Positions 1 to 60,546 of a stretch of 64,000 bases of DNA are shown one piece after another (the first letter of the stretch is position 1; every line of letters begins with the position of its first letter). The DNA comes from a plasmid, in the sequence record NZ_CP017041.1. The stretch is one strand, 5' to 3'. The notes under the pieces were generated by a model. That model had not been told where the DNA came from and did no database searches. It was given only the letters and a program-made list of their open reading frames with translations. The position numbers were made by a program, and so were the translations under genes.

Positions 1-514
1 CCATTGGCGCTAATATCGCAGCGATAAAGAGCGCTACACTGACTCCTAATAGAAACTGCTCATAAATATTTCTATCAAGTATCATATTACCGAGAATAGG
101 ACCTACCGCCGCAGTGCAATTCGCGACAACTTGAATGACAGCGAAACCGCGGTTTTGGGAAGCTCTATCAGGAGTTGCTAGCGCTATAAAGCTTCGCACA
201 CCAGTACCATTAACACTGAACCCTAGGCCCGCAGCGCCCAGAGCAGCAATTATCGCATAGGGGTTTGCCGTAAGCGCCACAACAGCGTAAGAAACCGAGA
301 TCAGAGTAAGAGCAATTCTTACGCAACTTCGCACTGATAAACGGTGAAGTGGCGAAGCAAGAAATAGAGCACCACCACGAGTCATCAGTGTAAGCACGCT
401 TACCGACCCCGCGATGAGTCGTTCCTGCGTACTTCCAAATTTCAATGTAAGCAATAGAGGGAGGACCGGTAGCAACGCAAAGTAAGATGATTGGCTGAGA
501 ACTTGGTCTGCCAT
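1..514 (-). CDS. Membrane transporter (MFS-like), N-terminal part; gene continues beyond window start
   Basis: The minus-strand reading frame opens at an ATG near 514 (MADQVLSQSS...) and runs off position 1. It is hydrophobic and TM-rich with a G-x-x-x-R-G loop motif typical of MFS. It is absent from the ORF track because it is truncated by the window edge. Confidence 0.45.
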   Translation of the reverse strand, partial: MADQVLSQSSYFALLPVLPLLLTLKFGSTQERLIAGSVSVLTLMTRGGALFLASPLHRLSVRSCVRIALTLISVSYAVVALTANPYAIIAALGAAGLGFSVNGTGVRSFIALATPDRASQNRGFAVIQVVANCTAAVGPILGNMILDRNIYEQFLLGVSVALFIAAILAPM

Positions 515-1173
515 AATGAGGTTGAATACGCGCCCAGGAAGCCGAGACTTCGACGGTTTACTTCGTGTCCCTATTGTCTTCACTGGCACCCCTAAACTTC
601 AGTCCAATCAACAACTCTAACAGCTTTTTTAATCGCTTCATCACAAACTTTATCTTCCCGCACGAATCTTCGAGTTTAATGCTCATATTGGTATGACATA
701 TTCGATGCATAAAGATTTCTCTAGTGAATATTAGACATTATATCTATGCTCTTGGTTCATGCGAAGATTATCGGTCGTTCCAGACGTTGGCGAAGAGTGC
801 GAATAGTGGTGCTGTCTTCACTGGCTCCGATCATTCACATAGCTGATGGCCTGTCGGTCTATGACGCCAGAACACACCTCGACCGAGAGCTCAACCACGA
901 GCCGCTGTGGGAATAGTGAACACGGAACTCATATTAGCAGCGACCCAATCACGCATCTCAACATGTTTGTGAGTAGAGAAATTATTCATAATTAGGCGCA
1001 AATCCTTCCTAGAGTAAACAGAAAAATCCTTGATGGCAATATTGGACGTTGACAACTCCAGCCACGCGACTGACGACGATGTTTAAAGCTGCGAACAAGG
1101 TTATCGTAGCGTGCCGCATAATATAGTCATGGTGTGTGTTTCACTGCTCACCGTAAAATCTACTGCCACGCAA

Positions 1174-2481: not shown

Positions 2482-3181
2482 TTAACCATTCCCTTCTTCC
2501 AAAACCTTCATGTGCATAATGCCCTCCGGTCACTTCGATCAATCTGTACGTCTCACTCGTAGCTTCACGCCATTGGACGGCCTCTTCGGAAGAAACAATC
2601 TTATCATCAATAGCGGAAACACAGGTTATAGGGACATGAATCTGCTTAAGTTGGTTACCACAACACGATTCCGCCAGTAAGAGATCATCGAGCGTAGGGC
2701 GAACAAACAGATCATCGGATTCATCGGAGTTCAGAATACTTTTAGGAGTCAATCCGTAGCTACGCATACGCTGCCGTGCACGTTCCAAGTTCCATCCCTC
2801 TCGCTCCCCCCTGTAACTCTTAGGACTTTGCCCACATAAGGCAACCAAACGAGTCGCGAAAATTCCGTCATTTTCTAAAATATTAGCAGCTACGAACGAC
2901 AACATCGCGCCAAAGCTAACCCCGGCGAGTATCAACGGCCCAGTCGGAATTTCGAAGGATGATCGAAACTTGCTGACGAACTCTCCCATGGTTCTGATGC
3001 CGGGTTCAAGTAATCGTTGACCCCTGCCAGGCGGGCAGTAACCCCAAACTGTAGTATCCCCCTCTAAGACAGACATCGATTGAAAGGCAGGAGCTCCGGC
3101 ACCCGTAGGAGGGAATATCAGGACTGTGGAGCAACAAGAGGTAGTTGCTGAACTAATACGCTGCCAAACTTCCGGATTCAA
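2468..3181 (-). CDS. Type II thioesterase (alpha/beta hydrolase)
   Basis: 237 aa ORF with the GxSxG nucleophile elbow (AGVSFGAMLSF). Its size and operon position are typical of editing TEII. Confidence 0.8.
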   Translation of the reverse strand: MNPEVWQRISSATTSCCSTVLIFPPTGAGAPAFQSMSVLEGDTTVWGYCPPGRGQRLLEPGIRTMGEFVSKFRSSFEIPTGPLILAGVSFGAMLSFVAANILENDGIFATRLVALCGQSPKSYRGEREGWNLERARQRMRSYGLTPKSILNSDESDDLFVRPTLDDLLLAESCCGNQLKQIHVPITCVSAIDDKIVSSEEAVQWREATSETYRLIEVTGGHYAHEGFGRREWLNVFS

Positions 3182-4917
3182 TGCTCACGCTCCTCAACAG
3201 GCATCAGCAAGCTGACCAAGCAGGAAATCGTTGGATTGGAATAGAAGTTCCGCAAGGGGACACGAACACCAAACTGTTTACCGATGGCGGTCAAAAGCTG
3301 AACAGCGCGCAACGAATTTCCACCTGCGGAGAAAAAATCACGATCTTCACCGTGGATCTTCTTTCCAAGGACCATATCCCAGATATTTTGCACTTGATCG
3401 TGAACACTGTTACGCTGCATTTGTCCTTGGGATATTCTGTCGTGATCGTAGAGTTCGCTCTGTGCTACCAATTTCAGGCACTCGCACCGATCTATTTTTC
3501 CCGTTCTTGATCTAGGAACATTCTGCGTAGTTACGATCTTGAGAGGAATCATATAGGAAGGTAGAAATTCGGCAAGACGAGAAGTCGTGACCTGAGACTC
3601 CCATTCGCGTGGAATCACGAGCGCCAAAAATCCACCACTGCCTTGGTGATAAACTGCACCACATTGTTTCGTGGAGTTAGCAACTCGAGCTGCAGCTCTT
3701 TCAACCTCTTCCAAGTGGATCTTGTGTCCAGCGATATTTACCGCATTATCGAGCCTGCCAACCAGTGAAAGGACACCATCCTTGATGATTCCCAGATCAC
3801 CAGTCCGTATTTCACGTTGTCCACTTCCAAGTGTAAAGAACGCATCGTCCCCTGGACTGAGTTGACCATTAACGATATATCCATCGGCCACTGGGGCACC
3901 CTGTACGCATATCTGTCCCTCTTCCCCAGATAACTTTTCGTTACCTTTCATGTCCCGAATTACAATTTTCGTAGCACAGATCGGCTCGCCAAGGGGGATA
4001 GGGTCCGGAATGCTACCTGACCGAGAAACCTCGAAACTTGTTGTGTTAGCCGACGTCTCAGTAGCTCCGTAAAGATTCACTACTCGCGCACGGGGCGCGA
4101 TCTCGAAGAATTGACGGACAACGCTTGCCATCAGCTGGTCTGCACTGCTGCACGCTAGACGGAGCTGAGGAAGAGTGCTCCCTTGCTCTGTGGCAATGTC
4201 ACACAAGCTGGCTAGTGCTGGAGGTGTCGTAAAAAGGTGGGTAGCACCACTAGACGCAAGTCGATCGAACATCACGTCAGGTCTGCTACGCTCGATATTA
4301 GTAATCAAAACACCAGTAACACCTGCCAGCAGAGTCCCCAACACTTCCCAAAATGAAGCAACAAATGAGAGTGGCTTCTGGACGACCACAAGATCGCTTG
4401 ACTCGTAAGGGTAGGCGTTCCACATCCACGTGATACGGTTCCGCACCGCATCCATTCCTACTTGGACGGCTTTCGGAACTCCTTCTGATCCAGATGTGAA
4501 ATATAAGAATTTTGATTTATCGCTCCAGGTCAAGGACCTGACATCACTTATCCAGTTCCCTGCAAAAATTGCTTCTTCCGCTGTTGAGTCGTCGATCAGA
4601 ACCGTTTTAGACCCAAGATTAATAATCATGTCCCGCTCTCGTGAAGCCGGAATATTCAACGGAATCCAAGCAATCTTGACAGGCAACGTCACAGCTGCTA
4701 TTACAAGGGCAACAGATTTGGCGGATAAATCGAGTCGAGCAGCAAAAGTAACGCCCTCACTTTGTTCTCGGTTGAACCACCTTCTCCACGCAAGGATATT
4801 TTTAACTAGCTGTTCCCATGAGCATTGCTCGCCGGCGGGACCGGTCAGACAGACATCACCTGGTTTCTGAATGACTATATTACGAAACCCCTCCAGCAAA
4901 TCATGTGACGGTTGCAT
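3178..4917 (-). CDS. NRPS adenylation-PCP didomain protein
   Basis: Core A-domain motifs are present: A3 (TSGSEGVPKAV), A5 (NLYGATETS), A7 (IRTGDLG), A8 (GRLDNAVNIAGHKIHLEEVE) and A10 (RTGKIDR). The PCP motif (FFSAGGNSL) follows at the C-terminus. Confidence 0.9.
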   Translation of the reverse strand: MQPSHDLLEGFRNIVIQKPGDVCLTGPAGEQCSWEQLVKNILAWRRWFNREQSEGVTFAARLDLSAKSVALVIAAVTLPVKIAWIPLNIPASRERDMIINLGSKTVLIDDSTAEEAIFAGNWISDVRSLTWSDKSKFLYFTSGSEGVPKAVQVGMDAVRNRITWMWNAYPYESSDLVVVQKPLSFVASFWEVLGTLLAGVTGVLITNIERSRPDVMFDRLASSGATHLFTTPPALASLCDIATEQGSTLPQLRLACSSADQLMASVVRQFFEIAPRARVVNLYGATETSANTTSFEVSRSGSIPDPIPLGEPICATKIVIRDMKGNEKLSGEEGQICVQGAPVADGYIVNGQLSPGDDAFFTLGSGQREIRTGDLGIIKDGVLSLVGRLDNAVNIAGHKIHLEEVERAAARVANSTKQCGAVYHQGSGGFLALVIPREWESQVTTSRLAEFLPSYMIPLKIVTTQNVPRSRTGKIDRCECLKLVAQSELYDHDRISQGQMQRNSVHDQVQNIWDMVLGKKIHGEDRDFFSAGGNSLRAVQLLTAIGKQFGVRVPLRNFYSNPTISCLVSLLMPVEEREH

Positions 4918-4939
4918 CTTTATCTCCCTTCATACTACA

Positions 4940-7900
4940 TCAATAGCTTTTGAGCATTGTTATCTGAGATGTATCACAATCATTAAGGGCAGTTTTTATG
5001 GCATTAGCGACAGTCGTCTTCCCCGAGAGCCAATCAGAGGTAAGGAACCACGCTGTAAGAGCCAGTACTTTATTAGCGCGTTCTGGTGTCACATACGCCA
5101 CTTTATAAGCAAGTTGCAAGGTATAATCTTCGCCGTGTCGCTGGATATAAAGAGACGCATCATATTTCGTAAACCCAGTATTCAATTCAGTTAAGTGAAG
5201 GCTTCGATCACCATCCCAAAACTCCAGAGACGGGTAAGTAAGCATATTCACCATCGTGCTAAACAATGGATCCTCGTTCGTGTGATCAGCGAACTCAGAA
5301 ACAACCTTGCTAAATACGCTGTCACCGAATGAGACAGCTTCAGTCACATTAGATATCATCGAACGTACTGTGTCACTAATTTTCTTTTCGACATCTATAC
5401 GAGTTCGTATTGCAATCATGTTAAGCATCAGAGTTGGGACGCCAATTTCATACTCATCGTTTCGCCCTGCTACTGGTGCACCGACAACAAAATCATGTTG
5501 GTCAGAGACCGCTGCCAACGCTAACGAATAAGCAGCCACGAATACTGCAAATGGGCTTGTACTCAATGCATGCGCAGTGGAACGGATCTCAGCAGTCGCT
5601 TCGTCATCTAGAGAGACCTCTATAACAGAAGCAGCGTAGGGATCACACGAACTATTTAATGTATCGCGCAATGGGAAACATGATTTCACTCCATCGAGTG
5701 ATTTTGACCAAAATTCTCGTGCTTCAGCGGATATCTCTTCAGGTTTCGACAGATGTTGGAAATATTCCAGAGCTGAAGTCATAGCTGTCTTGACTTCGAT
5801 CTCCTGATCGTCCATGTTACGACACTCAAAAAGAGAAATTAACTGTTCCATGAACTTCATTGCTCCCCAGCCATCGATAAGGATCTCGTTCATGGTCAAA
5901 ACGAACCAGGTAGAATATCCATTTATACGGATCTCGTCCACGGCGATAGCGGGACCTTCCTCCAGGTTAAAAGGGACTGCTGCTTTCATCCAACAGATCT
6001 CACGAGCCTCTTGCGCAGAGGCCACTTCGTGTATTGAGATTTCATCCATATCGATAGCAGAGATAGGAAACGTCTGTGTAAATCTCCCAGTTGAATCCAC
6101 TCCAAACTTCGCCATTAGCTGTGGATTCGCCCGTAATGCCTGGCCAAGAGCACGACGGATTCTATCGGTGTTCGACCCAGCGCATTCTAACAATATCTGA
6201 TAATTATAGTAAGGGCTTTCAGGCTCCAGTAGCCATTGAAAATAAATTCCTTGCTGAGCCGGATTCATATCACAAGTCAAAGGAATTTTGACGTCATCAA
6301 AGCGGGAAGGAGATCTTTTTGCAGAGGTCGATTTCTTCGGAGATATCTGTTGTGCTTGATATTCTTTTGCTAGAGAGCCTAACGTATATGAAGAAAGCAA
6401 ATCTCGTACTCTTACGTAAGATCCTCGTGAGCGGACAATATTGGCTAGCTGAATTGCTCGAAGAGAATCGCCTCCGGATTCGATGAATGTTAGTTCTGGA
6501 TTCACAGGAGTGCCAAGCACGTCCTGAACGAGAAGAATGAAAGAGTCCTGATTCTGTTCAACTCTACCGGGAATGGATCCCTCTCTTGACTCTTGAATTT
6601 CATTCAGTAACAGTTCCCCGGCACGGCGCTCTAATAACTTAATATCTACCTTGCCATTTGAAGTAGTGGGAATATCAGTAACCTCTATCCAACGGGATGG
6701 ACACATCACTCTAGGGAGACTGCTTTTCGCGCGATTATTAAGCATTTTGGGAGTAACTAAACAATCGGCGCGAGGAAGATAGAATGCGGCCAAGCTAGCG
6801 TCTCCTTGGCGAAGAAACTGGTGCGTCGTTTCTCGGAGCACCATTGCGCGACGTTCACGGACACGAGGGTGGAATTTAACCACTACAACGTCTTCAAGCT
6901 CTGGGATTTCTCGAAGGATACGGTTCTCGATTTCACCGGGCTCAATCCGTACTCCACTAATTTTTATCTGTCGATCAGCGCGGCCATCGTAAACCAGCTG
7001 ACCATCCGCTCGCTGGTGAACGAGATCTCCGGTGCGGTATATTCGGAATGGGTATCCATCAATCCTGGCAAATGCTTGAGCGGTTTTATCTGGGCTTCCG
7101 ATATAACCTAAACCCACACAAAGACCAGCAACAAAAAGCTCGCCTTGCGCTCCAGGAGAAACTGGACGCCAAGTACCTTCTGCGTACTCTAGGACGTATA
7201 AAGACGTATTAGGTATTGGAATTCCGATGGGAACTTCACCTGAGTTAAGCGATTCGCCATCCACGATCGCATGCGTTACATCATCAGAACATTCCGTAGG
7301 ACCATACGCATTAATCAACGGGACAAACGGAAATTTGTCTGCCCAGTCTCTAGCCAACCGAAGGGGTAATTCTTCACCAGTCACCAGAACATACTCAAGC
7401 CCAGAGAAAGACACGCTTGACCCAATTTCGTGAATAAGTTCACGAAATACTGTCGGAACTAGTTCAATGTGTGTTATATGTTTCTCTTCCAGTAAAGAAA
7501 AAAGCTCATGTGGATCCTGTGAAATACCGTTGGGGACGATACGTACTGCACCGCCTACCAGTAAAGCTGAACAAAATTGCCAAATGGATACATCAAAGGT
7601 GGTAGGTGCCGTCTGGGCCACAACTGAGTCAACACCAAGATGAAGGAGATGGGCTTTGCTATGCAAGTGATTCATCATGCCCATATGCGCGATTAGCGCA
7701 CCTTTCGGTTCACCTGTGCTACCCGAGGTGAAAAAGCAGTAGCTTGGAGCGTTGAAAGGATCATCCACACGCTCCAGAAATGTGACTCCTAATGGTGCCT
7801 TTGCTTCCGTTACGTGCGAGGTATTTTCAGTGAAAATGGCGACCGCGTTCGTGATTGTCTTAATATGTTTACGACGAGCCTCTGGCCACTGAGGATCAAT

Positions 7901-8236
7901 GGGTGTATAGATGGCACCTACGGCACTACAAGCTAGGATATCGACAAGACATTCGATACCGCGCGAGTGCTCTGAAATGACTACTCTTCCAAAGGCATGT
8001 TTCTTTTCCAAGAGATAGGCTCGATTGTTAACTCGATTCAATAACATTTCGTAGGTGATTTCTTCACCATGAATATCTATTACGGCAACGTGATGTGAAG
8101 TGATCTGGGCCCATTCAACTAAATACGAGTAGAGTGTGCGTTCTAAAGGCCAGTCGACGTTTTCCCCGACCAGTGCACTCCGGGTAGCGAGCAAGCTCAA
8201 CCCATTTTTTTCCAAACTTTTGGTAAGGTTTATCAC
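4940..8236 (-). CDS. NRPS A-PCP-C tridomain protein (C domain C-terminal, with degenerate HHxxxDG core)
   Basis: A domain motifs FTSGSTGEPKG, NAYGPTECS, YRTGDL, GRADRQIKISGVRIEPGEIE and NGKVD are followed by PCP (ESGGDSLRAIQL). A condensation domain follows, with a C1-like MNPAQQGIYFQ and a core reading MNEILIDGWG instead of HHxxxDG. Confidence 0.9.
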   Translation of the reverse strand: MINLTKSLEKNGLSLLATRSALVGENVDWPLERTLYSYLVEWAQITSHHVAVIDIHGEEITYEMLLNRVNNRAYLLEKKHAFGRVVISEHSRGIECLVDILACSAVGAIYTPIDPQWPEARRKHIKTITNAVAIFTENTSHVTEAKAPLGVTFLERVDDPFNAPSYCFFTSGSTGEPKGALIAHMGMMNHLHSKAHLLHLGVDSVVAQTAPTTFDVSIWQFCSALLVGGAVRIVPNGISQDPHELFSLLEEKHITHIELVPTVFRELIHEIGSSVSFSGLEYVLVTGEELPLRLARDWADKFPFVPLINAYGPTECSDDVTHAIVDGESLNSGEVPIGIPIPNTSLYVLEYAEGTWRPVSPGAQGELFVAGLCVGLGYIGSPDKTAQAFARIDGYPFRIYRTGDLVHQRADGQLVYDGRADRQIKISGVRIEPGEIENRILREIPELEDVVVVKFHPRVRERRAMVLRETTHQFLRQGDASLAAFYLPRADCLVTPKMLNNRAKSSLPRVMCPSRWIEVTDIPTTSNGKVDIKLLERRAGELLLNEIQESREGSIPGRVEQNQDSFILLVQDVLGTPVNPELTFIESGGDSLRAIQLANIVRSRGSYVRVRDLLSSYTLGSLAKEYQAQQISPKKSTSAKRSPSRFDDVKIPLTCDMNPAQQGIYFQWLLEPESPYYNYQILLECAGSNTDRIRRALGQALRANPQLMAKFGVDSTGRFTQTFPISAIDMDEISIHEVASAQEAREICWMKAAVPFNLEEGPAIAVDEIRINGYSTWFVLTMNEILIDGWGAMKFMEQLISLFECRNMDDQEIEVKTAMTSALEYFQHLSKPEEISAEAREFWSKSLDGVKSCFPLRDTLNSSCDPYAASVIEVSLDDEATAEIRSTAHALSTSPFAVFVAAYSLALAAVSDQHDFVVGAPVAGRNDEYEIGVPTLMLNMIAIRTRIDVEKKISDTVRSMISNVTEAVSFGDSVFSKVVSEFADHTNEDPLFSTMVNMLTYPSLEFWDGDRSLHLTELNTGFTKYDASLYIQRHGEDYTLQLAYKVAYVTPERANKVLALTAWFLTSDWLSGKTTVANAIKTALNDCDTSQITMLKSY

Positions 8237-8243
8237 TCTATAT

Positions 8244-9233
8244 TCACCGTTTCATGTCTCCGTGAAAGTCTGGAACACGTAATCCATCGCCGGATATTTG
8301 AACGTGCTCGTACAAGCTTTGAGCAACAGCAAGGTCCAAAATTCCTAAACCAAAAGGAGAGAATACGGTTGGATGATCAGGGTCAAGCTGCTTCTCAGAG
8401 CATATGAATTCCGCCAGTGTGCCTGTGATGAAATTTCGATTTCCGTTCAATTGTTCGAGGAGGTGGGGTGTAGTGTTTGCCTTCAGGCAATGTTCAACAT
8501 CATCAAACACGTTATTAGCCGTTCGAATGGTCTCAGGGTGTAAATCACGAAGCGAGATATTGAGAACGAGCTGGTTCGGTTGGAAACGTACACTCATCGG
8601 CACATAAGGAGTTCCGGCGCTGGTGGCTAATAGCACGAGATCACAGCCAAGAGCTTCTTCTAAACTGACTACCGAACACTCGGGGCCGTGGCGAGTGACT
8701 ATACGTGCGACTAATTCACTATTTAAATCGTGAATTTTCACTGGAACCGCTGTCGTGTATAGCGACTTAATAAAATGTAAAGTTGTCTGTGCGATAGGGC
8801 CACTGCCTACTACACCGATACTCGTAGGAGCACCGTGAAGAACTCGAACTGCAAGCGCAGCCGAGGCAGCTGTACGAGCCGCACTAATGCGGCTGGCCTC
8901 GATGAACGCATAAGCATAGCCGTTATCTGTGTTATTTAGCACGATGACTGCTGAAGCTCTTTGTAGCCCATGATCAACATTCTCAGGAAAGCTAGAAATC
9001 CATTTAATTCCCGACACACAGGTTTGATCATTGATATAAGATGGCAACGCTATGATACGATCTCGTGGAGCATCTGGAAACCGAAGAAAATAACTATCGG
9101 GACATACTGTATTTCCAGCGTGATGTGCTCGATAAACACGTTCAACAAGATCGATGAGAAACGACTCTCTGCCTTTTAAAAATGTTTCGACAAGCTTGGC
9201 GTCTATAATTAGCATTTCACCATATTTCGTCAT
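8244..9233 (-). CDS. sbnB: SbnB-like NAD-dependent dehydrogenase (ornithine cyclodeaminase/mu-crystallin family)
   Basis: 329 aa ORF with a Rossmann motif (GVVGSGPIAQ) in the OCD-family layout. It sits directly downstream of the SbnA-like gene, the canonical Dap-synthesis pair. Confidence 0.75.
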   Translation of the reverse strand: MTKYGEMLIIDAKLVETFLKGRESFLIDLVERVYRAHHAGNTVCPDSYFLRFPDAPRDRIIALPSYINDQTCVSGIKWISSFPENVDHGLQRASAVIVLNNTDNGYAYAFIEASRISAARTAASAALAVRVLHGAPTSIGVVGSGPIAQTTLHFIKSLYTTAVPVKIHDLNSELVARIVTRHGPECSVVSLEEALGCDLVLLATSAGTPYVPMSVRFQPNQLVLNISLRDLHPETIRTANNVFDDVEHCLKANTTPHLLEQLNGNRNFITGTLAEFICSEKQLDPDHPTVFSPFGLGILDLAVAQSLYEHVQISGDGLRVPDFHGDMKR

Positions 9234-10235
9234 TTAAATACCTTCCGTTTCTTTCACTTCGTGCGCAACAGGACGAATGGCATAATTAAATGCTGATTCC
9301 CCAAAGTTTTCCATAACCCAATCGTCGTTATATACTCCATCCAGATACCTTTCACCAAGATCCGGCGCAATAATGACAACGCGGCTTCCCTCGGGAATTT
9401 TATCTCGAAGAGCATCAAAAGCTGCTAGCACAGTGCCAGTCGATCCACCCGGTAAAAATCCTTCTACCTGCGCAATGCGTCGGCACTGTCTCACGGTATC
9501 GATTTCATCAATATAATACCGTTTTAGAGGAAATTTTTCGTCAAAGATTGGTGGCTTTACACTAGCGCCTAGACCAGGGATATATCGCCGCGAAGGAGCT
9601 CCTCCGAAAGTCACTGAACCAGTGCTATCAATAGCATAAACTTTGGTGCATGAACCACGCTTCATGACAGCCCTAGATACACCCATAAGCGTGCCAGTGG
9701 TACCAGCACCTACAAATAGGTAATCAGGATCTCCTAACTCTTCGACGATCGCTCTATATGTCTTTTTGGAATGAACCTCAGGATTGGCTACATTTTCGTA
9801 CTGGTTTGTCCATAAAGGCCCTCCTGGCATCTCTACTAATTCGCGAACTCTAGCAAGTCGCGTCCCAAGAAATCCGCCCGCTGCATCCAATGATTGAACA
9901 ACTTCCACTTCCGCGCCCAGTGCACGCATATGCGAAATCGACCTTGAATTTGCATTCAGATCTGTAACAATTGTTAATTTGTATCCTCGGCGCGCACATA
10001 CACCGGAAAGTGCTATGCCTAAACTCCCAGAAGAAGACTCTACGACCCAACCTCCTGGCTGAAGACCATGAAGCTTTTCTAAGCTATCGACGAGTGCAAT
10101 AGCCGTCTTGAGTTTTACGGAACCAGCAGTGTTTAAACCTTCTAATTTTGCGTAAACATCATGTTTAGGAAATGAATTTTTCAAGCGGACAAATTGAGAG
10201 TTTTCATCTAGTTCTTCAATAGATCCTGCAATCAT
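9234..10235 (-). CDS. sbnA: SbnA-like PLP-dependent synthase (cysteine synthase fold)
   Basis: 333 aa ORF with a PLP-lysine motif (KLEGLNTAGSVKLK) and glycine-rich loops (GAGTTGT, GGSTG). It is the first gene of the NRPS operon. Confidence 0.8.
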   Translation of the reverse strand: MIAGSIEELDENSQFVRLKNSFPKHDVYAKLEGLNTAGSVKLKTAIALVDSLEKLHGLQPGGWVVESSSGSLGIALSGVCARRGYKLTIVTDLNANSRSISHMRALGAEVEVVQSLDAAGGFLGTRLARVRELVEMPGGPLWTNQYENVANPEVHSKKTYRAIVEELGDPDYLFVGAGTTGTLMGVSRAVMKRGSCTKVYAIDSTGSVTFGGAPSRRYIPGLGASVKPPIFDEKFPLKRYYIDEIDTVRQCRRIAQVEGFLPGGSTGTVLAAFDALRDKIPEGSRVVIIAPDLGERYLDGVYNDDWVMENFGESAFNYAIRPVAHEVKETEGI

Positions 10236-10425
10236 TTATTTGCTCCTACTGCGCATGACATGACATCGGAAGTTTTCATAACATACAAGCAAATTATAAT
10301 GAGGAGTCTTGTACAGGCTATGGGCGTTATTAGAAGAGGTTTAGGCAAGAAGTTAAGGATCTTGATCATGTTGATCCTGCCTACGAATGGCGTTGATAGA
10401 ATGACAGAGACAACAACACATATGC
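10236..10425. promoter_or_regulatory. Divergent promoter region between NRPS operon (minus) and PPTase gene (plus)
   Basis: A 190-bp AT-rich intergenic region lies between two divergently oriented genes. No promoter motifs were computed. Confidence 0.3.
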
Positions 10426-11250
10426 GTGACCTCCCTAGTGATACACGCTGAAGTAACTTGTCACCTACTTCATGAGCTAGTCTATCTCCTTATAGGACCA
10501 CATAAAAGAGAGGACCAAAAATTGATCTACATTTCTCGTGTGTCACTCGATACATTCCCCAAGAGTGCCTTGCCACAGCTGATGGAAAGAGCTAGTCCTG
10601 AACGACGAGATAGAGCACGAAGATACGTGCGAATCGATGACTGCTTGCGCTGCCTCATAGCTGACGAACTCCGGGCCTATTCATTGAAGCTTGATTACAA
10701 GGTGCCAGTACAGTCAGAGGTATCGAAGAACGCTTTCGGGAAGCCGCTACTAGCAAACCGCGATGGTCCTAAGTTCAACTTGTCGCACGATGGGAAGTGG
10801 ATTGTCTGTGCCACAAGCCCACATCCTGTAGGCGTAGACGTCGAGGCAGTCGCTGAGCCAGGTTTAGCGGTGGTCTCGAACGATTTTTCAGTGGAAGAAG
10901 TGGAGGCCTTGCGGACGACCGCTACGGCTCCCCTCTCCATCGCTCGAGCGATGATCTGGACACGGAAGGAGGCATACCTCAAATATCTGGGGTTGGGTCT
11001 CACTGTTCAGTTAGATTCTTTTTCAGTAATAGATCAAACCTTGCTGTCGCCAGCTGAAGGGATGACAGACGGTATTCAGTTTTATAGTTGGTGCGATGCC
11101 GATAACTCGCATGTGATCTCTGTCTGTGGCCACGGCGAGGAAGTCGTCATCTCTTGCGTCAGCGGGCAAGAATTACTAGATGGACTGCCACCATCTCACT
11201 GTTCAGAAGAACCTCAAGAGCAACTTCGTTGGTTGCCCAATCTTAGTTAA
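10426..11250 (+). CDS. Sfp-type 4'-phosphopantetheinyl transferase
   Basis: It has the FNLSHDGKWIVCATSPHPVGVDVE and WTRKEAYLKYLGLGL (W/FxxKEA) motifs. The true start may be internal, because Sfp enzymes are about 230 aa. Confidence 0.7.
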   Translation: MTSLVIHAEVTCHLLHELVYLLIGPHKREDQKLIYISRVSLDTFPKSALPQLMERASPERRDRARRYVRIDDCLRCLIADELRAYSLKLDYKVPVQSEVSKNAFGKPLLANRDGPKFNLSHDGKWIVCATSPHPVGVDVEAVAEPGLAVVSNDFSVEEVEALRTTATAPLSIARAMIWTRKEAYLKYLGLGLTVQLDSFSVIDQTLLSPAEGMTDGIQFYSWCDADNSHVISVCGHGEEVVISCVSGQELLDGLPPSHCSEEPQEQLRWLPNLS

Positions 11251-11349
11251 GATCATTTTGTAATTATCAAAATTCCAAGTCGCCTCGAGAAAAGCATTAA
11301 CAGAGATCATATCTCACCAGGAGAGATGCGGCTTAAATAACCTTCTCTT

Positions 11350-12054
11350 TCAATCCTTCATGACAGCTAGGCTCTTCACCTCGTCACGATCAAGTACTGG
11401 ATCACTCATGATAGATTTTTCGTGCTCAGCAATGCATCGTGGGCACTTTTTGAAAAAAACTGATCCGAAACGAGTTATACCTGCTGGTAGTGGCCCGTAA
11501 TTAGTAGCTATCTTGGCTATAGCTCCCCATGAAGGAAGAACCCATTCCACAGACTGTCCTTGAGCAGGTACATCCGCTGAACGTCGATAATCAAATCCAC
11601 CCAAGAGCTCCGCAAGATCCCAATAAGCATAAAATAGATCCGAGGCCAAATCGCTCTTCGAATGGACTTCTTGTCGCAAGTCACCATCGTGTAAAATAGC
11701 GATAGTGGATCCCCGATCCTCCCCATGCACCAATGGTGGCATGGAAGAAAATTTCCGAGTATTATAGACATGTACCCAACCAGATACGGATTGCTCTGGA
11801 GCCATCGGGACAACATGTGCTGGTATGGAATCGAATCCTAAATAAAAAGCTGCTCGACACCTGTGGGCTCCATCAAGGATGATGTAAGGTGCCCCTTGGG
11901 CTACGTGGATGCTTTCTCGTAATGCTTCATGTTCTAGCAATTTTGTAAGACGCTTGAGACGCAAAGTCTCACATTCCTCATGCCATACGAGTTGGTTTAG
12001 CGGAAGATACGATGATAACTCACAGCTACTACTAATTTTCATCAATTTCATCAA
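11350..12054 (-). CDS. ParB/sulfiredoxin-fold (ParB-like nuclease domain) protein
   Basis: 234 aa ORF. It carries the motif YIILDGAHRCRAA, which matches the DGxHR ParB/Srx signature. It is the last low-GC gene before the compositional junction. Confidence 0.45.
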   Translation of the reverse strand: MMKLMKISSSCELSSYLPLNQLVWHEECETLRLKRLTKLLEHEALRESIHVAQGAPYIILDGAHRCRAAFYLGFDSIPAHVVPMAPEQSVSGWVHVYNTRKFSSMPPLVHGEDRGSTIAILHDGDLRQEVHSKSDLASDLFYAYWDLAELLGGFDYRRSADVPAQGQSVEWVLPSWGAIAKIATNYGPLPAGITRFGSVFFKKCPRCIAEHEKSIMSDPVLDRDEVKSLAVMKD

Positions 12055-12956
12055 CTCTCAATGCACTATTAATGGCAACCTGGTCTTGAGATATCCGATC
12101 TATGACTCGGACCACTTTTTCATTGAGTAAGACAGTTTCTAGTATGTTTACTACGAATAAGGGAAAACTTTCTTCAATTTTACCTTAGGGAAAGATATCT
12201 CATAGTTCCGCATCACGACTATTGAAATTTGTAGATCGACCGACTTCTATAACCGATAAATTATGGGCGACTACAGCGATGTCTGTCGAGGCACCAACGA
12301 TGATTCTCGACAGCCCTGGACCCGCACTATCTCTTTTTGGGATGGAACGCATCGCATTGGCAATGCCTAACAGATCATGCTCTTCCGATCCTTGTCCATA
12401 CTTAACTGATGACCGCAGAAGCACAGATGCGGTAGGCATGGGCGGTGTCCGGATCATCCCCCCTTGGGAGCTAAGAGACCGTCGTTGATCACTACATCGA
12501 ACAAGGCCTGCAGGATAGGTTTACAAAACCGATCCGCCGCTACCACCAGTTCTGACACAAGCTTACGTACCATTGTTGATGCCATATCGCTCCTTCGCAG
12601 AAGCGTTCCGGGGGCTCGCAGACGGCATTGGCACCTTGGCACCGATGTCCGTGAATCCACAACGGAACCTGAAACTGCCCCACACGGTCTGATGCTCCGA
12701 CTTTCGTCAGCTTCCCCAGATCATCCGGGGCATCAATCCATTACCAGATTGACACTTAGCACTGTACCCTCACCAAGACCACACCAGCATCGAGGACGGT
12801 GGGAGAGAGGCGAACCCGCCACCACACGATGCACAAATACAAAAATACATAGGCATCATGATGCTCTTGGGCATCTCGCATACCCCCGTACGGTGCCCAA
12901 ACTCAATCCCTACGCAAAGCTCGCAGGCCTAAGTCTGCCCATCAAAATCATGGCTT

Positions 12957-21689: not shown

Positions 21690-22168
21690 ACATTATAGTA
21701 TAGCCCCACTATACATATAAGACAACCCCCTATTTACAGTTTAGTTGGCTTCTGTGCGCCCTCCACTGATGCCGTGGTGGACGAAGTCGTACCGTCCCGT
21801 CTGCTCGATTAGCGATATTGTCACGTCCGTAAGTGGCTTCCAGCGCGTCGATGATGAGCTGACGGGCCGTGGTGCCTAGATGCTTGAGGACGTCGCCCAC
21901 AAGGGCCAGCCTCCGCATGGACAGAACGAATCCTCAGCAACGCCGACCCACTGGGATTCCCCGTTGAGCCGGCCAACACGTCACCGCTGCAACATCTCAG
22001 CTCTAATCCCGACAAGATCATCATCATCGACACCCCGGCAGGCAACGGAGACATCACCACATACCCCGATCTGCCAAACCTCAACGACGACAAACACTGA
22101 GCTGAAAGGAACACGATCATGGCGTCGGGCTGGTCTTCGGCGTAGCACAAGCCCAGCGCTTTTGACGG

Positions 22169-35140: not shown

Positions 35141-35260
35141 CGATCCGGTGTGGGGCCAGGGACCCACGTTTTCCTGTGCCTGTTTTTTCTTGGCCGACCA
35201 GCGGCGGGACTTAGGGTTAGCGGATGCACCTTCTGGGGTGCATGCTCGTCTCAATCGCAT

Positions 35261-36086
35261 CGGTCACCTCCTTCATTCACTGGATGAAGGGATGAAGGGA
35301 GTGGCCCATGTGCGGTCGAACCCGAAAAAGTTCAAACTTTTTTCTGGGTCTGCCTCAAGTACGACAGAAGGCCTGCATCATCACGGCGTTGTGGTAGCAG
35401 ATCTTGCGTCAGCGTAAATGTATGGGCCTCGTAGGAGTAGCTCTTAGGTGGGTCCCGGTGGTTGCGGCCAGGGCGAGGGTGTCGGGTATGTGTAGCGCTA
35501 GTCCCGGGTTCGTGGTGTGAGGGCTTTTGGGTGCTGACATGCACTACCCATTGCTAGACGCTGTGCTGTGGCATGGCTAGGCGTCTAGCAGACGGGTTGA
35601 CATCACCTTTAGGCTGGCAGCATCCGAGGCCGCAGGCCAGAGGAATGCGGACAGCCTAACGATTGACGTCCCCCTCTTATTTCCTTCACCTCTTCCACTT
35701 TCTGGAGCTGGCACTCCCCTTGCTGATGTCAGCTTTTTCCTGGATGCCACGGTTGAGTCGACTACTCGAAGGTGGATCGATCCACCGATGTATCTGACTC
35801 TGGTTTTAGAGGCCATCCCCGCTACTTCTGAAGTCACCCCTTCTCCCCCGGCATGACAGGCGGCGCCCCACAGATTGACGACACTGCGGGGCTGCGGAGG
35901 TCTTCCAAGACTGTCGCCAGGGAAAGTGCGTGTCTGTCATCTCATCTTTTCCCGTCACATTTCCCCTTGTCAGAGCGGTTTTTGCAAAGTGACAACGTCA
36001 GGGGTCTTGACGACAACATCCTCGACAACATCGTGGCGGTGGTCTGTGTCTCGTCAGTTCAACGCACCGGGGAAAGAGGCACCGCT
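35261..36086. promoter_or_regulatory. ~0.8-kb noncoding divergent region with several inverted repeats (candidate oriT / promoter hub)
   Basis: No ORF of at least 60 aa. Inverted repeat ctagacgc-N19-gcgtctag at 35554-35588. Perfect 14-bp palindrome gtggatcgatccac at 35772-35785. The region lies between minus-strand transfer genes and plus-strand sigma/par/tad genes. Confidence 0.3.
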
Positions 36087-36774
36087 GATGTTCACCACCA
36101 CAAACACTCTCAACGATGAATGGGACCAGATTCGCGCCATCGAGATCGATTGGCATGACTGCCCCGAACTGATGCACTGCATCGACGTTGATGATGTGTT
36201 GGCCGTCATTCCTGCCGCCCCCGACGCCATCCTGGGCTACCTCATTACCCGAGCTCAGGGCGGTGACGAGTTGGCCACCCGCACTATCATCCAAGCGTTC
36301 ACAGGCAAGCTTATTTTGATGGCCACGGCCACCAAGGTGCGCCGTACTAATGACGGCTTCAATGATCTGCTGGCGGGGTTGTGGGAGACGATCATCACGT
36401 ACCCGTTGGATCGTCGCCCTGACAAGATCGCTGCGAACCTCACCCTCGACACGTTGCACCGGGTTACCCGGTTCTGGCGTGCTGATTCCCCCGATGAGGA
36501 AGAGGCTCACGGTCTGGTGCCCTTCCCTGACACTCTCATCGCCCCAGAGCCCGATGAGGACGTCACAGCTAGCCAGGCCATCGCCTTGGCGGTGGACCGC
36601 AACTGGATTACCGAGGACCTAGCCCGCCTCATGAGCCATATTTACTGTGACGGTATGACTGGAGCTGATGCGGGTCGTCTGCATGGCTGCGCTCCAGCTA
36701 CGGTGCGATCTCGATGCCGTGATGGTCGGGCCGTGTTGCAGCGCAACGCCGAGACGATCCTGGCCGTCTGCTGA
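36087..36774 (+). CDS. ECF-type sigma-70 family factor (regions 2 and 4)
   Basis: The C-terminus has a region-4 HTH (HIYCDGMTGADAGRLHGCAPATVRSRCRDGRAVLQRN). The ATG at 36087 is preferred over the ORF-track start at 35875. Confidence 0.5.
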
Positions 36775-37517
36775 TCCCTCTCTTGCTCATGCCTGCCGCC
36801 ACCCTACCCCTACCTGCTAGAAACATAGCCATGTCTCCAGCAACGCATCTAGCATATTTTCTAGCAATTGATCTAGCTATGTATATAGCTGATGATCTAG
36901 CTATCATATAGCTGTGTCTCCAGCCTATGGGTCACGTTTACTGTGACGGTATGACTGGAGCTGATGCGGGTCGTCTGCATGGCTGCGCTCCAGCTACGGT
37001 GCGATCTCGATGCCGTGATGGTCGGGCCGTGTTGCAGCGCAACGCCGAGACGATCCTGGCCGTCTGCTGATCCCTCTCTTGCTCATGCCTGCCGCCACCC
37101 TACCCCTACCTGCTAGAAACATAGCCATGTCTCCAGCAACGCATCTAGCATATTTTCTAGCAATTGATCTAGCTATGTATATAGCTGATGATCTAGCTAT
37201 CATATAGCTGTGTCTCCAGCCTATGGGTCACGTTTACTGTGACGGTATGACTGGAGCTGATGCGGGTCGTCTGCATGGCTGCGCTCCAGCTACGGTGCGA
37301 TCTCGATGCCGTGATGGTCGGGCCGTGTTGCAGCGCAACGCCGAGACGATCCTGGCCGTCTGCTGATCCCTCTCTTGCTCATGCCTGCCGCCACCCTACC
37401 CCTACCTGCTAGAAACATAGCCATGTCTCCAGCAACGCATCTAGCATATTTTCTAGCAATTGATCTAGCTATGTATATAGCTGATGATCTAGCTATCATA
37501 TAGCTGTGTCTCCAGCC
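36641..37517. repeat. Tandem direct repeat, 296-bp unit x ~3, carrying AT-rich ATAGCT/CTAGC iteron-like motifs (parS-like)
   Basis: Identical 69-aa ORFs recur at 296-bp spacing (36698, 36994, 37290). Each unit is the last ~44 codons of the sigma gene plus 150 bp of AT-rich sequence with repeated gatctagcta / atagct inverted hexamers. An 11-nt junction (tatgggtcacg) joins the copies. Confidence 0.9.
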
Positions 37518-37600
37518 CAAATGACAGCCCAATGGCATGCTTGCCACAGGAAGGTGCGTCAGCCTCCCGAAATACTGGAAGGAGCTTTACCGTGCAGGAC

Positions 37601-38527
37601 ATGACCTCGACCAGACCGATTGACCGATCCCCGTTCGACCGCAGCATCGCGGTATGGAACCACAAAGGCGGCACGTTCAAGACGTCCGTCGTGGCGAACC
37701 TGGGATACCTGTTCGCCGCCGGTGGCAACAAGGTGCTGATGGTCGACATGGACCCCCAAGCCAATCTCGACATTGACTTCGGTATACCCGCGGGAGAACG
37801 TGAACGGGGCATGGGATTAGCCGAGGCGCTACGTGAGGGGACGGCCCTTCCCCCACCGCGTCATCTCAGCGAAAACCTTCACCTGGTCAGTGGCGGCCCG
37901 GCCCTCCACGAGTTCACCGACCCCGCCTCCCTAGCGGCCATCCTCGAGCGGGTCACTACCGCACGCTACGACCTGCTGGCCCAGGCCCTCGCACCGCTGG
38001 CCTGGGACTACGACCTTATCCTTATCGATTCCGGGCCGGCCCAGACTGTGCTGTCCCAGACCATCCTTGGAGTAGCCCGCTACCTGGTGGTGCCCACCCG
38101 CTCCGATAACGCCTCGATCACCGGGCTGGTCGGCGTTCAGGACGCCATCGATGAGGTCGCCGACTGCAACCCCGGCCTGAACCTGCTCGGTGTTGTGCTG
38201 GCTGGTGTGGGCACTCAGGCCACCCGGATCGGGGCCGATAAACGCAAGGCCATTGACACGGTCTTGGGGGAGGGGACCGTCTTCGAGGCGATCATCCACT
38301 ACTCCGAAAAAGTGGCCGTGCTCGCACGCCAGCAGGGTAAGACCGTCGCCGAGTTGGCTGGCGAATACCACCACACCCAGCCCGCCTACACCTACCTAGC
38401 CCAAGGCAAAAAGGTCCCCAACGTCGCTAAGGCGGCCGTCGCCATTGAAACCGACTACCTACGGTTGGCCACCGAAATCAGTGACCGCATGTTCGCCGGC
38501 GACGAGCAGGAGTCCACTCATGACTGA
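37601..38527 (+). CDS. parA: ParA/Soj-family partition ATPase
   Basis: Deviant Walker A (NHKGGTFKTS) followed by VLMVDMDPQANL. A start at 37601 is preferred (the ORF-track start at 37532 lies inside the repeat-derived sequence). Confidence 0.75.
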   Translation: MTSTRPIDRSPFDRSIAVWNHKGGTFKTSVVANLGYLFAAGGNKVLMVDMDPQANLDIDFGIPAGERERGMGLAEALREGTALPPPRHLSENLHLVSGGPALHEFTDPASLAAILERVTTARYDLLAQALAPLAWDYDLILIDSGPAQTVLSQTILGVARYLVVPTRSDNASITGLVGVQDAIDEVADCNPGLNLLGVVLAGVGTQATRIGADKRKAIDTVLGEGTVFEAIIHYSEKVAVLARQQGKTVAELAGEYHHTQPAYTYLAQGKKVPNVAKAAVAIETDYLRLATEISDRMFAGDEQESTHD

Positions 38528-39140
38528 CGATCCGACCCTGCCCGACCACACCTCCACCGAGGGCGACGACGCCGACACGCGCCTGGCTGAGGAGTGGACC
38601 ACCAGCGGCCGCAAAGTAGGCATCCTGCCCCAGCGTCAGCGACCCGGACGCTCCACAAAACCCGCTAAACAGACTCCTGTCTCGTCCCCTGCTCCTGCTG
38701 CACCAGCACCAAGGAAAACCCCGGCGGCCACAACCACCCAGAATGAACGCCAGCGGATCAACGTCACCGTCTACGTTGTCCCCGAACTGGCCGCCGAGCT
38801 GCGCTCCCGGTCTGCGGCGACGGGGGTGACGGTCTCGGATCTGGTGGTGCAGGCTCTGGTTTTTGTGGCCGATCACGCGGGCGAGGCGGTCGCCGATGAT
38901 GTTCGCGTCGACGCGGTTACTGGTGATGGGGGAGGGTTGTTCGATGTGACCCCGTCGCGGCCGACAGGTGTCGCTAAGACCCAGTTGGGGGTGCGGATGA
39001 CCCGCCACAACAAGGACGGTTTGGACCAGCTGACCCAGATCAGTGGGGCCCGTGACCGTAGTCATCTTGTGTCCGTGGCCGTGCGCGACTATCTCGACTC
39101 TAATCCTGTTCCTGTGAAGAAAGGCCACCATGTCCGCTGA
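38519..39140 (+). CDS. Centromere-binding protein candidate with two RHH-like modules (ParG-like)
   Basis: It overlaps the parA stop (ATGACTGA). A Pro/Ala-rich linker is followed by QRINVTVYVVPELAAELRSRSAATGVTVSDLVVQAL and a second segment, LGVRMTRHNKDGLDQLTQISGARDRSHLVSVAVRDYL. Confidence 0.5.
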
Positions 39141-59171: not shown

Positions 59172-59342
59172 ATGAGCTACATCACCCGCACCGGAAACCT
59201 GGCCGGCGCCCCCGAGCTGCGCGAGGGAGAGCGTGGCCCGTACACCTACGCCCGCGTCATCGTGTCCGACCGCATCCGCCAGGAGGACGGCAGCTACACC
59301 GACGGACCGGCGGCAGCCGATTCGTCGGCACCGCGCCCCTGA
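59172..59342 (+). pseudogene. SSB (single-stranded DNA-binding protein) N-terminal fragment
   Basis: 56-codon ORF with RBS aggagg: MSYITRTGNLAGAPELREGERGPYTYARVIVSDRIRQ... It is like the SSB OB-fold start (ITVVGNLTADPELRF). Confidence 0.4.
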
Positions 59343-59373
59343 CAGTACTATTGACACTATTGGAGGTATCACC

Positions 59374-60172
59374 GTGACCGCTCAAATCTTCGCCCTCTGC
59401 AACCAGAAGGGCGGCGTCGGCAAGTCGACGACGACATTTCACCTGGCCCGCGCCGCGGTGCTGCGCGGCCAGCGCGTGCTTGTGGTCGACAACGATCCCC
59501 AGGGGAACCTGACGTCCGTCGCGGCCGCCGAGCCCGTCGGGGAAGACCAGGCAGGACTGGCCGACGCGCTCAGTGCGCGCGCGCCCGAGACCATCCGCGA
59601 CGTGATCGTGCCGGGAGTCTGGCCCGGCCTCGACGTCGTGCCGACGTCGGGAGTCACGCTCGGCTACGTGCGCGACGAGACTCGTGATCGCCGGGGCCGG
59701 CCGAGAGGGCCGGCTGCGCGAGGTCCTGGCCGCCGTCGCTGGCGACTACGACGTGATCCTGATCGACTGCGCACCGAGCCTGGACCAGCTCACGATCAAC
59801 GGCCTAACGGCCGCGCAGGGCGTCGTCGTTGTGACCCACTCGAAGCTGTGGAGCGCGAATGGCTTGGCGCAGCTGCTCGACACGATCGAGAGCGTGCGCG
59901 CCTACTACAACCCCGAGCTGTGCGTGGCGGGCATCATCGTCAACCAGCACGAGGAGAACACCGTCAGCGGAAAGACCTGGCTCGGCGAGCTGGCCCAGGC
60001 CGCCGAGTCCCGAGGGCTGAGCGTGCTCAGCCCTCCGATCCCGAAGCGCGTCGTCATCGCAGACGCCACCGAGGCCGCGCGCGGCCTCGACGAGTGGGGG
60101 AGTGCCGAGGCGACCGCACTCGGCCAGCTTTACGCCGACCACCTGACCAGTATCGAAGGAGTCCTGTCATGA
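59374..60172 (+). pseudogene. parA: parA with internal frameshift (or sequencing error) near 59690
   Basis: A GTG start with a ggaggt RBS gives VTAQIFALCNQKGGVGKSTTTFHLA...VLVVDNDPQGN. The frame is lost after ...LGYVRDE. The remainder (LVIAGAGREGRLREVLAAVAGDYDVILIDCAPSL...) continues in the +1 frame to 60172. Confidence 0.55.
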
Positions 60173-60546
60173 ACCGCCCATCCCCCCGCAAGTCCTCACT
60201 GAGCGGATCGAGCCCGGTCGCCCCGCCGCCGGCAGAGACGCCCGAGACGAAGCCGACACCGGCCGCGCCCGTCACGCGCAAGGCCGAGGAACCGTCGACG
60301 AGCGGCAAGAAGAAGTGGCGGCACAAGGTGTCGTTCTACCAGGACCCGGCCGACACCGACCGGGTGCGAGGAGCGATCCTGCACACGATGGTGCAAGAGG
60401 GCAACCGGAACCTGAGCCAGTTCGTCAACGACGCCGTGATGGCCAAGGTCGAGGAGCTGGAAGCCAAGTACAACCACGGCGAGCCCTTCCCCGCCGTGGG
60501 AGCCCGAGAGCTGCCCCAGGGCGGCGCGGCCGCCGCTGGCGAGTAA
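60169..60546 (+). CDS. Partition/centromere-binding protein candidate (ParG/RHH-like) downstream of parA
   Basis: Pro/Ala-rich N-terminus, then KVSFYQDPADTDRVRGAILHTMVQEGNRNLSQFVNDAVMAKVEEL. ATGA overlap with the parA stop. Confidence 0.45.
   Translation: MNRPSPRKSSLSGSSPVAPPPAETPETKPTPAAPVTRKAEEPSTSGKKKWRHKVSFYQDPADTDRVRGAILHTMVQEGNRNLSQFVNDAVMAKVEELEAKYNHGEPFPAVGARELPQGGAAAAGE

Follow-up and report, generated by a model that had tools for sequence, protein, structure and literature searches.

The sequence record NZ_CP017041.1 describes a plasmid, of which a stretch of 64,000 nucleotides (in the following, the window) was analysed. At positions 36641–37517, located between a gene whose product has a weakly sigma-70 region-4-like C-terminus and a gene for a ParA-family ATPase (parA), this window carries a 296-bp unit that is repeated three times in tandem. 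parA overlaps a gene for a protein with two ribbon-helix-helix (RHH) modules, and each repeat unit contains an array of short phased boxes. An earlier annotation of the window (the original prediction) proposed that the unit resembles a centromere site for the ParA and RHH pair, multiplied by a recent tandem amplification. The array is most likely a type-Ib-like operator and, as we infer, plausibly a centromere, and it was multiplied by ordinary duplication-amplification.

Tandem Repeats Finder (TRF), applied to 36641–37517, reports a period of 296, 3.0 copies, 100% matches, 0 indels and a score of 1754. Together with string comparison, this bears out the triplication with period 296 directly upstream of parA and corrects one detail of the original prediction, in that the copies are not near-perfect, but perfect. 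The whole array follows the scheme A-J-A-J-A, i.e. three times a 285-bp segment (A) and two identical 11-nt junctions (J). Copy 1 (36641–36936, plus strand, as are the other two) includes the junction at 36926–36936 and runs on from the intact upstream gene. Copy 2 (36937–37232), which includes the junction at 37222–37232, is string-identical to copy 1, and copy 3 (37233–37517) comprises 285 bp that equal the first 285 bp of the unit and run into the native parA leader. The left edge of the repeat unit lies 134 bp ahead of the stop codon of the open reading frame (ORF) 36088–36774, and its right edge lies 75 bp short of parA, whose GTG start is at 37592. Both the upstream gene and parA are undisrupted by the array, parA keeps its normal upstream context, and the net gain from the amplification is 592 bp between the two genes.

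Every unit harbours a box array of ~105 bp with a GC content of 35–38%, as compared to ~62% for the plasmid. The arrays of copy 1 (36813–36917), copy 2 (37109–37213) and copy 3 (37405–37509), all on the plus strand, are identical to each other, and the third one is the sole array in single-copy relatives. In copy 1, 12-mers with the consensus AT(C/A)TAGC start at 36823, 36847, 36859, 36871, 36883, 36895 and 36906, and the TAGC cores are located at 36826, 36850, 36862, 36874, 36886, 36898 and 36909 (spacings of 24, 12, 12, 12, 12 and 11 nt). An inverted box, TTCTAGCA, at the left edge of the array (36815–36823), added to these seven direct boxes of the general form (A/T)T(C/A)TAGC, brings the total to 8 boxes in 105 bp. 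In the array, TAGC occurs 6.3 times per 100 bp, ~27-fold more densely than in the remainder of the window's high-GC part (0.23), TAGCTA is confined to the arrays within the window, and no comparable box cluster was found elsewhere in the 64 kb. The hexamer clusters quoted in the original prediction are thus present, in the form of phased TAGC cores and the inverted box. An Rfam search of 35200–37700 at E ≤ 1 gave no match. Matches to a degenerate core pattern in viral contigs (10 in total) were discarded as chance occurrences, none of them being related to the locus by BLAST.

The leader of parA (37518–37591, plus strand), with its Shine-Dalgarno (SD) sequence GGAAGGAG at 37577–37584, is conserved across the lineages that were compared (those denoted by an L number are handles of our own). 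A palindrome in the leader (TGGCATGCTTGCCA, 37530–37544) is conserved in the window/HL096 and p11-79 lineages, not in L100. The succession GGAAGG...CCTCCC...GGAAGGAG was considered as a regulatory RNA switch and dropped, as it folds no better than shuffled sequence (z = +1.35). parA itself (37592–38527, plus strand) encodes an ATPase of 311 aa with matches to AAA_31 (1.8e-23) and CbiA (3.5e-14). The Walker A motif KGGTFKTS begins at residue 24; ~16 residues precede the ATPase core, and there is no N-terminal DNA-binding domain. In all lineages the motif is conserved as KGGT(F/Y)KTS. Within this motif (window 37661–37684, ParA residues 24–31), one position that is a glycine in most ParA/MinD proteins is aromatic here, and the aromatic F or Y is found in all lineages of this ~300-aa ParA family. 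A search of genome contigs with the ParA protein returned generic Walker-motif matches, the best with 33% identity and none from Cutibacterium.

The RHH gene (38520–39140, plus strand) starts 8 bp before the parA stop at 38527. As had been proposed, ParA and RHH genes follow directly downstream of the array; gene order and profile matches confirm this, and the two genes overlap. The product of 206 aa contains two RHH modules (aa ~77–120 and ~153–193) and scores 22.1 bits with the RHH_3 profile, the cut-off being 21.6. Its N-terminal ~75 aa are disordered and variable, and the two modules are nearly invariant; AlphaFold2 (AF2) predicts the beta-alpha-alpha succession twice, with a predicted local distance difference test (pLDDT) score below 50 in the N-terminal 80 aa. 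A profile search among 1.84 billion representatives found 449 relatives, nearly all of 170–250 aa and matching across both RHH modules, and none of those looked up carries an informative name. Sequence search of the RHH profile against solved structures gave chance matches only. In a structural comparison by Foldseek, the best matches of the model were two chains (E and G) of 102–113 residues in the F relaxosome, although the match is weak (E = 0.03, template modelling score 0.5 on target). Their length, and the description of a single-chain RHH dimer in the corresponding paper, suggest that these chains are probably TraY; F TraY is a monomer that contains the whole RHH dimer fold (PMC12117103).

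On the other side of the array, the upstream gene (36088–36774, plus strand) encodes a protein of 228 aa, and the repeat unit includes the final 134 bp of the gene. The orthologue PAGK_2357 was termed 'sigma 70 family' (PMC3666418, Kasimatis et al.), and the NCBI name is also sigma factor. What stands of this label, which the original prediction shared, is a weak region-4 likeness. Sigma70_r4_2 is matched by all five family members, always below the cut-off (E = 0.006–0.03, best E = 0.0057; 14.2 bits versus a cut-off of 25.7 for the upstream protein), NCBIfam SigM yields 20 bits versus a cut-off of 190, and no sigma region-2 match was found in the family. Regions 2 and 4 above thresholds, by which an extracytoplasmic function (ECF)/sigma-70 factor would be recognized, are therefore not present, and we refer to the gene as sigma-like. 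Sequence search against solved structures gave chance matches only for this protein, and its AF2 model (pLDDT 38) is unusable.

The window belongs to a linear Tad-pilus plasmid of Cutibacterium. It is 99.6% identical to pKB17-24694 of Cutibacterium modestum (AP024748.1), with which it is colinear at 99.5–99.7% identity, and displays 82–92% identity to the C. acnes plasmids pIMPLE-HL096PA1, pTP-CU411 and p11-79. Two copies with the identical junction are present in pKB17-24694, which was assembled by Unicycler from long and short reads (PMC8620323), and also in the metagenome contig L092. By exact look-up, the 228-aa upstream protein of the window occurs in 548 index blocks; among the seven places listed, the junction is present in five (L122, L123, L124, which is pKB17, L125, and L126, i.e. 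GCA_004793845.1), and the other two (L127, L128), whose backbones are near-identical, have a single copy. One copy is likewise found in the C. acnes plasmids, in 13 of the 14 metagenome contigs containing the array core, and in L095, although the parA-RHH region of L095 is 99–100% identical to that of the window. Close relatives thus have a single copy, and the claim of a genuine tandem amplification with a unique junction holds. Identical head-to-tail units, a single shared junction and single-copy close relatives together characterize a recent tandem duplication-amplification. In natural plasmids the repeat is polymorphic in copy number, and the figure of three is that of the window assembly alone. 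As the junction is unique, the duplication arose once, within one sub-lineage in which it is now widespread. A single-nucleotide polymorphism (SNP) in the array reads T in every copy of the window, L092, L122, L125 and L126, and C in both pKB17 copies and in the single-copy plasmids. Such a concerted pattern fits homogenisation by unequal exchange or gene conversion, and consensus polishing could mimic it.

In bacterial tandem duplication-amplification, an illegitimate join is followed by RecA-dependent expansion and contraction. The unique shared junction, the occurrence of one, two or three copies and the homogenised copies all resemble this process; the junction described here differs in that it is not a simple microhomology join. 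The amplification itself is an ordinary kind of mutation, and the array an ordinary kind of site. Alternatively, the duplication may be real and the third copy an over-expansion by the assembler, the true state being two copies or a mixed population. The other junction-bearing assemblies retrieved show exactly two copies or an unresolved gap, and 100% identity of the three copies would also be expected from consensus polishing. However, two copies is the minimal path of a short-read assembler for at least two tandem units, hence a lower bound. L123 has a scaffold gap of 100 N within the repeat, which shows that short reads are unable to count the units of a 296-bp tandem repeat. In addition, RecA-type unequal exchange between perfect repeats of 296 bp is expected to give changes from two to three copies, and outside the repeat the window follows pKB17-24694 colinearly without any other anomaly. 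We therefore consider an artefact of this kind unlikely.

The junction itself (J, TATGGGTCACG; 36926–36936 and 37222–37232, plus strand) had been called novel. It is unique in the sense that, outside the two junctions, it is absent from the 64-kb window even with 1 mismatch allowed; however, it is not random filler. Compared to CATGAGCCATA, the 11 nt preceding copy 1 (36630–36640), J displays 6 matches and 5 mismatches, all of which are transitions, and the two positions further left add one transition and one match. By chance, zero transversions would be observed with a probability of 4.9e-4 for the 11 nt and of 1.2e-4 for the 13 nt, in a test that was picked post hoc. In the frame of the upstream gene, J changes MSHIY to MGHVY with the ATG and the reading frame kept, and its codons CAC-GTT resemble the CAC-GTC of the divergent lineage L100. 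Transition-only differences, the kept ATG and L100-like codons make J look like a homeologous version of the upstream gene's own sequence. No donor was found in viral contigs or, with as many as 3 mismatches tolerated in an 18-mer, in the window. If a donor allele of ATGGGTCACGTTTAC exists, the junction edge would be derived from a homeologous copy.

J supplies an in-frame ATG, and thereby creates two identical ORFs of 47 aa (MGHVYCDG...ILAVC; 36927–37070 and 37223–37366, plus strand) with a region-4-like C-terminal helix-turn-helix (HTH). The extra region-4 coding fragments of the original prediction hence exist as reading frames; their ATG is preceded by neither an SD sequence nor a leaderless-compatible -10, and exact look-up of the product gave no record. 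The best explanation is that the 3′ fragment of the sigma-like gene within the unit is a passenger, and that the amplified segment is non-coding in function.

Which protein may read the boxes is suggested by a comparison of lineages. Analogous arrays are found at the same position in five other lineages, and across the six lineages the box sequence changes with the beta-strand residues of the RHH protein and not with the recognition helix of the sigma-like protein. Strands of the type VTVY / QLGxR are associated with TAGC boxes (window, HL096PA1, p11-79, L100 and L132), strands ITFNIP / QFGxRL with TGTTAG at 11-nt phase (L106 and L129), and strands CPAYLP / MFFSGL with ten GTTRCGC boxes at 13-nt phase (L133). 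In p11-79 and L100 the spacers have diverged, and TCTAGC boxes are kept in a phase of 12 or 24 nt in either orientation. Compared with the window, the sigma-like protein of L106 is 45% and its RHH protein 30% identical. In L132 the ParA and double-RHH pair lies near a TrwC relaxase, and tad genes are absent; the RHH protein there shares 32% identity with that of the window, and TAGC/GCTA occurs just upstream of parA at 7.2 per 100 bp versus a background of 0.29. L133 is distant, and it keeps the whole synteny (VirB4-like, TcpC-like, sigma-like, ParA, RHH, tad). There, about ten 13-bp tandem repeats of CGGTTACGCCGCT (L133 3743–3890) lie between the sigma-like gene and parA, and one further box is found upstream of the sigma-like gene. 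In L129, a gene of the IS605-family OrfB/TnpB type (1097–2326) is inserted between parA and the double-RHH gene.

A second site carries the same box. The non-coding stretch of 830 bp ahead of the sigma-like gene contains, 1.26 kb upstream of the array, a perfect 10-bp inverted repeat TGCTAGACGC/GCGTCTAGCA (35552–35590, within the interval 35552–35602), which includes the TCTAGC box of the array and is followed by TTGACA. This distal inverted pair is kept in HL096PA1, p11-79 and L100, and at the homologous position of L106 the box is switched to TGTTAGC. The fact that the distal box is shared with the array, and switched in L106, suggests one trans-factor with at least two operators, the second of which is probably the distal pair.

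Because the boxes co-vary with the RHH strands and not with the sigma helix, the array is most likely the operator of the RHH protein together with a type-Ib-like centromere. The sigma-like protein was rejected as the reader of the boxes: in L106 the array box has changed (TCTAGC to TGTTAG), yet the protein's putative recognition helix, ATVRSRCRDG, has stayed invariant. The same invariance speaks against a model in which the sigma-like/HTH protein binds the boxes and expressed 47-aa fragments compete as decoys. This model draws on the gene adjoining the array, on the region-4-like C-terminus in all five family members, and on a junction whose ATG is in frame and whose codon changes are conservative (MSHIY to MGHVY). 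However, the lack of an SD or a leaderless-compatible -10 before this ATG and a product recorded by no gene caller leave it with next to no probability in our view.

As a whole, we regard a recombination-prone amplification of an RHH-bound operator/centromere array as the best explanation, with a confidence somewhat above even. One illegitimate event would have produced the junction, and homologous unequal exchange would then alter the copy number and keep the copies identical. A single molecule of the single-chain double-RHH protein (38520–39140) would probably occupy each box. In its coated form the array would probably repress the parA-RHH(-tad) operon promoter and, by analogy with type Ib systems, would probably double as a centromere on which the ParA ATPase acts. 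The amplification would take the binding boxes from 8 to 24. The repeat with its junction and polymorphism, the phasing of the boxes, the order of the genes and the co-variation of box and protein are observed in the sequences; RHH binding, operator and centromere function, and a phenotypic effect of the extra copies are all deduced from sequence and should be read as predictions.

The anatomy of type Ib partition systems is recognizable in all its parts. The Walker-type ParA lacks an N-terminal DNA-binding domain; a downstream RHH gene encodes a flexible N-terminal tail, with two modules per chain as a variant; and short repeats upstream of parA would, judging by this anatomy, double as operator. 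With 311 aa, ParA exceeds the ~200 aa of the classical type Ib protein. In plasmid TP228, the centromere parH consists of tetramer boxes separated by AT-rich spacers over ~100 bp, and it is progressively weakened by the deletion of boxes (PMC3130281). The ParF-ParG-parH system of this plasmid resembles the present one in its Walker ParA without HTH, followed by an RHH protein with a flexible N-terminal tail, and in its ~100-bp degenerate box array upstream of the ATPase gene, which in TP228 is coated cooperatively and in which box number matters (PMC3130281). On the other hand, the box is (T)CTAGC at 12-nt phase here and an ACTC tetramer in TP228; a chain of ~200 aa with two RHH modules stands in place of a 76-aa homodimer, and a ParA of 311 aa has the motif KGGTFKTS. 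The present operon also differs in that it continues into tad genes, that the array lies inside an amplified, copy-variable 296-bp unit, and that the system is known from sequence alone.

Plasmid pCXC100 of Leifsonia xyli, whose RHH ParB binds an unbroken series of nine direct repeats of 9 nt successively and cooperatively (PMC3074162), shares with our system the actinobacterial host, an RHH protein and a run of short repeats. No sequence relation between the RHH proteins is detectable, and here the repeats recur every 12 nt, with spacers between them and one of the boxes inverted. The omega protein of pSM19035 is a small homodimer whose boxes are contiguous 7-bp heptads, either direct or inverted. 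In the delta-omega system, omega, an RHH centromere binder and global repressor, binds short-box arrays at more than one promoter, which are both operators and parS (PMC3074150). The likeness lies in the occurrence of the same box in the main array and in the distal inverted pair. With F TraY, the protein shares the placement of both halves of an RHH dimer in one polypeptide. TraY is a relaxosome accessory at the origin of transfer (oriT), whereas the protein described here is coupled to ParA, and the match is weak and the model of low confidence.

Several observations weigh against this interpretation. The co-variation amounts to three specificity classes, and the AF2 model of the RHH protein has a pLDDT of 48.6. 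Scans for consensus sigma-70 promoters and intrinsic terminators in 36500–37700 and 35200–36150 found nothing, and hence no consensus sigma-70-type promoter in the array. Three copies were found in no other assembly among those retrieved, short-read assemblies being unable to count 296-bp units. Start/stop overlaps chain parA, RHH, SAF/RcpC, a 272-aa gene and CpaF/TadA, and parA therefore heads a long operon; the sole published reading of the neighbouring genes is that of sigma/antisigma regulators of Tad (PMC3666418). Other ParA cassettes are known in the plasmid family, namely three small ones in HL096PA1 and one beside the replication gene of p11-79, and for this reason the array module need not be the partition system. 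The window, too, has a second par-like cassette (59233–60546) with a Soj-like ParA that is split over two frames.

The N-terminus of this split ParA runs from ~59383 and its C-terminus lies in ORF 59684–60172, owing to a frameshift or a sequencing error, and an RHH-like C-terminus follows (…HKVSFYQDPADTDRVRG…). At the DNA level, the cassette at ~59.4 kb is 78–83% identical to par loci on plasmids from Corynebacterium, Leifsonia and Glutamicibacter, and only a piece of ~230 bp matches other Cutibacterium plasmid records. It is this cassette, not the array module, that belongs with the par loci common to actinobacterial plasmids. At 21897–22061 lies a short remnant with 69% identity, over 55 aa, to pIMPLE-HL096PA1's small ParA (record 3643–4233), which suggests a further, decayed par cassette.

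These points bear on the possibility that the array is an operator only. The RHH protein would then be an autoregulator of parA-RHH-tad, and via the distal pair of the sigma-like gene, and ParA would not segregate the plasmid. As a corollary, the amplification would multiply operators, and possibly promoters, and thereby alter the expression of the Tad pilus and ParA. Such a role is supported by the overlaps that chain parA through CpaF/TadA, by the conserved inverted pair next to TTGACA, whose distal box switches together with the array box in L106, and by the other par cassettes, one of which adjoins a rep gene. The upstream genes were proposed to control Tad transcription (PMC3666418), and the sigma-like/ParA/RHH/tad synteny is kept in the very distant L133. 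However, 8–11 phased boxes exceed ordinary RHH operators and are typical of type Ib centromeres (PMC3130281, PMC3074162). A ParA with a conserved Walker A motif is present in all lineages, always coupled to the RHH gene, and the pair is also found without tad genes (L132). Moreover, operator and centromere are the same DNA in type Ib systems, so that the two roles are compatible. We consider the operator-only case the main rival of the best explanation, possible, yet rather unlikely. Of the centromere proposed in the original prediction, the type-Ib anatomy and the co-variation of boxes and RHH protein stand; the partition role is a plausible deduction, tempered by the other par cassettes and by an operon that runs into tad.

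An AT-rich island of phased repeats at a place where gene orientation diverges could also be a replication origin with iterons, or else an oriT to which a TraY-like accessory protein binds. In structure, the RHH model is matched best by the F relaxosome chains E and G, the plasmid encodes VirB4-like, TcpC-like and FtsK-like transfer proteins, and the pair in L132 lies near a TrwC relaxase. Iterons would be expected next to the initiator gene. In p11-79, however, the replication protein (record 3623–4372) is ~18 kb away from the array (~22.4 kb) and beside a different ParA, and an iteron-type origin was rejected in this context; boxes of 6–7 bp at 12-nt phase also differ from iterons of 17–22 bp. 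The oriT version was likewise rejected, as no relaxase gene is associated with the array: none is annotated nearby, and MOB-suite typing finds none and classifies the plasmids as non-mobilizable. The Foldseek match is weak (E = 0.03) and was obtained with a low-confidence model, and the RHH gene is translationally coupled to the ParA gene in every lineage, including L132. Both versions together appear very improbable.

More speculatively, the unit may be a reversible, recombination-driven switch, in which a change of the array to one, two, three or more copies would tune segregation or incompatibility, or ParA-RHH-Tad expression, in Cutibacterium populations on skin. The junction would then have been selected because it preserves the ATG and the frame, and every added unit would encode a free HTH peptide of the sigma-region-4-like type that modulates the system. 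We give this idea little credence.

The plasmid is a mosaic in the vicinity of the locus. Compared with pIMPLE-HL096PA1, a sharp identity boundary lies at ~37700–37900, with 96–100% identity to the left (transfer genes, sigma-like gene, array) and 70–88% from about 37.8 kb on to the right (parA, RHH, tad genes). Recombination appears to have had a breakpoint here, at the 5′ end of parA. In L092 the duplication is joined to a right arm of the HL096 type, and in L095 a single copy to a right arm of the window type; recombination close to the array, loss of the duplication by reversion, or chimeric metagenome contigs could account for these combinations. At the far end, positions 1–12500 of the window have 46% GC versus ~62% elsewhere, are shared with pKB17-24694 (including an SbnA/cysK-like gene) and are absent from the C. 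acnes plasmids. This segment of 12.5 kb resembles an insert of foreign origin, particular to the plasmid of the C. modestum type.

Among the mobile elements of Cutibacterium acnes and its relatives, linear Tad-pilus plasmids are the main large ones, and macrolide/tetracycline resistance is carried by some of them. For these plasmids, the present data provide a concrete cis-site, namely TCTAGC boxes in 12-nt phase with a distal inverted pair. The probable reader is an unnamed family of single-chain double-RHH proteins (~450 clusters) coupled to a ~300-aa ParA, and the copy number of the array varies in natural populations. The distinctive particulars are this reader family, the natural series of one, two and three copies, and the transition-only junction. 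If the array is a centromere, the one-, two- and three-copy variants would form a natural series for centromere dosage, segregation and incompatibility. If it is an operator only, the same series would bear on the regulation of Tad pili, which are linked to colonisation.

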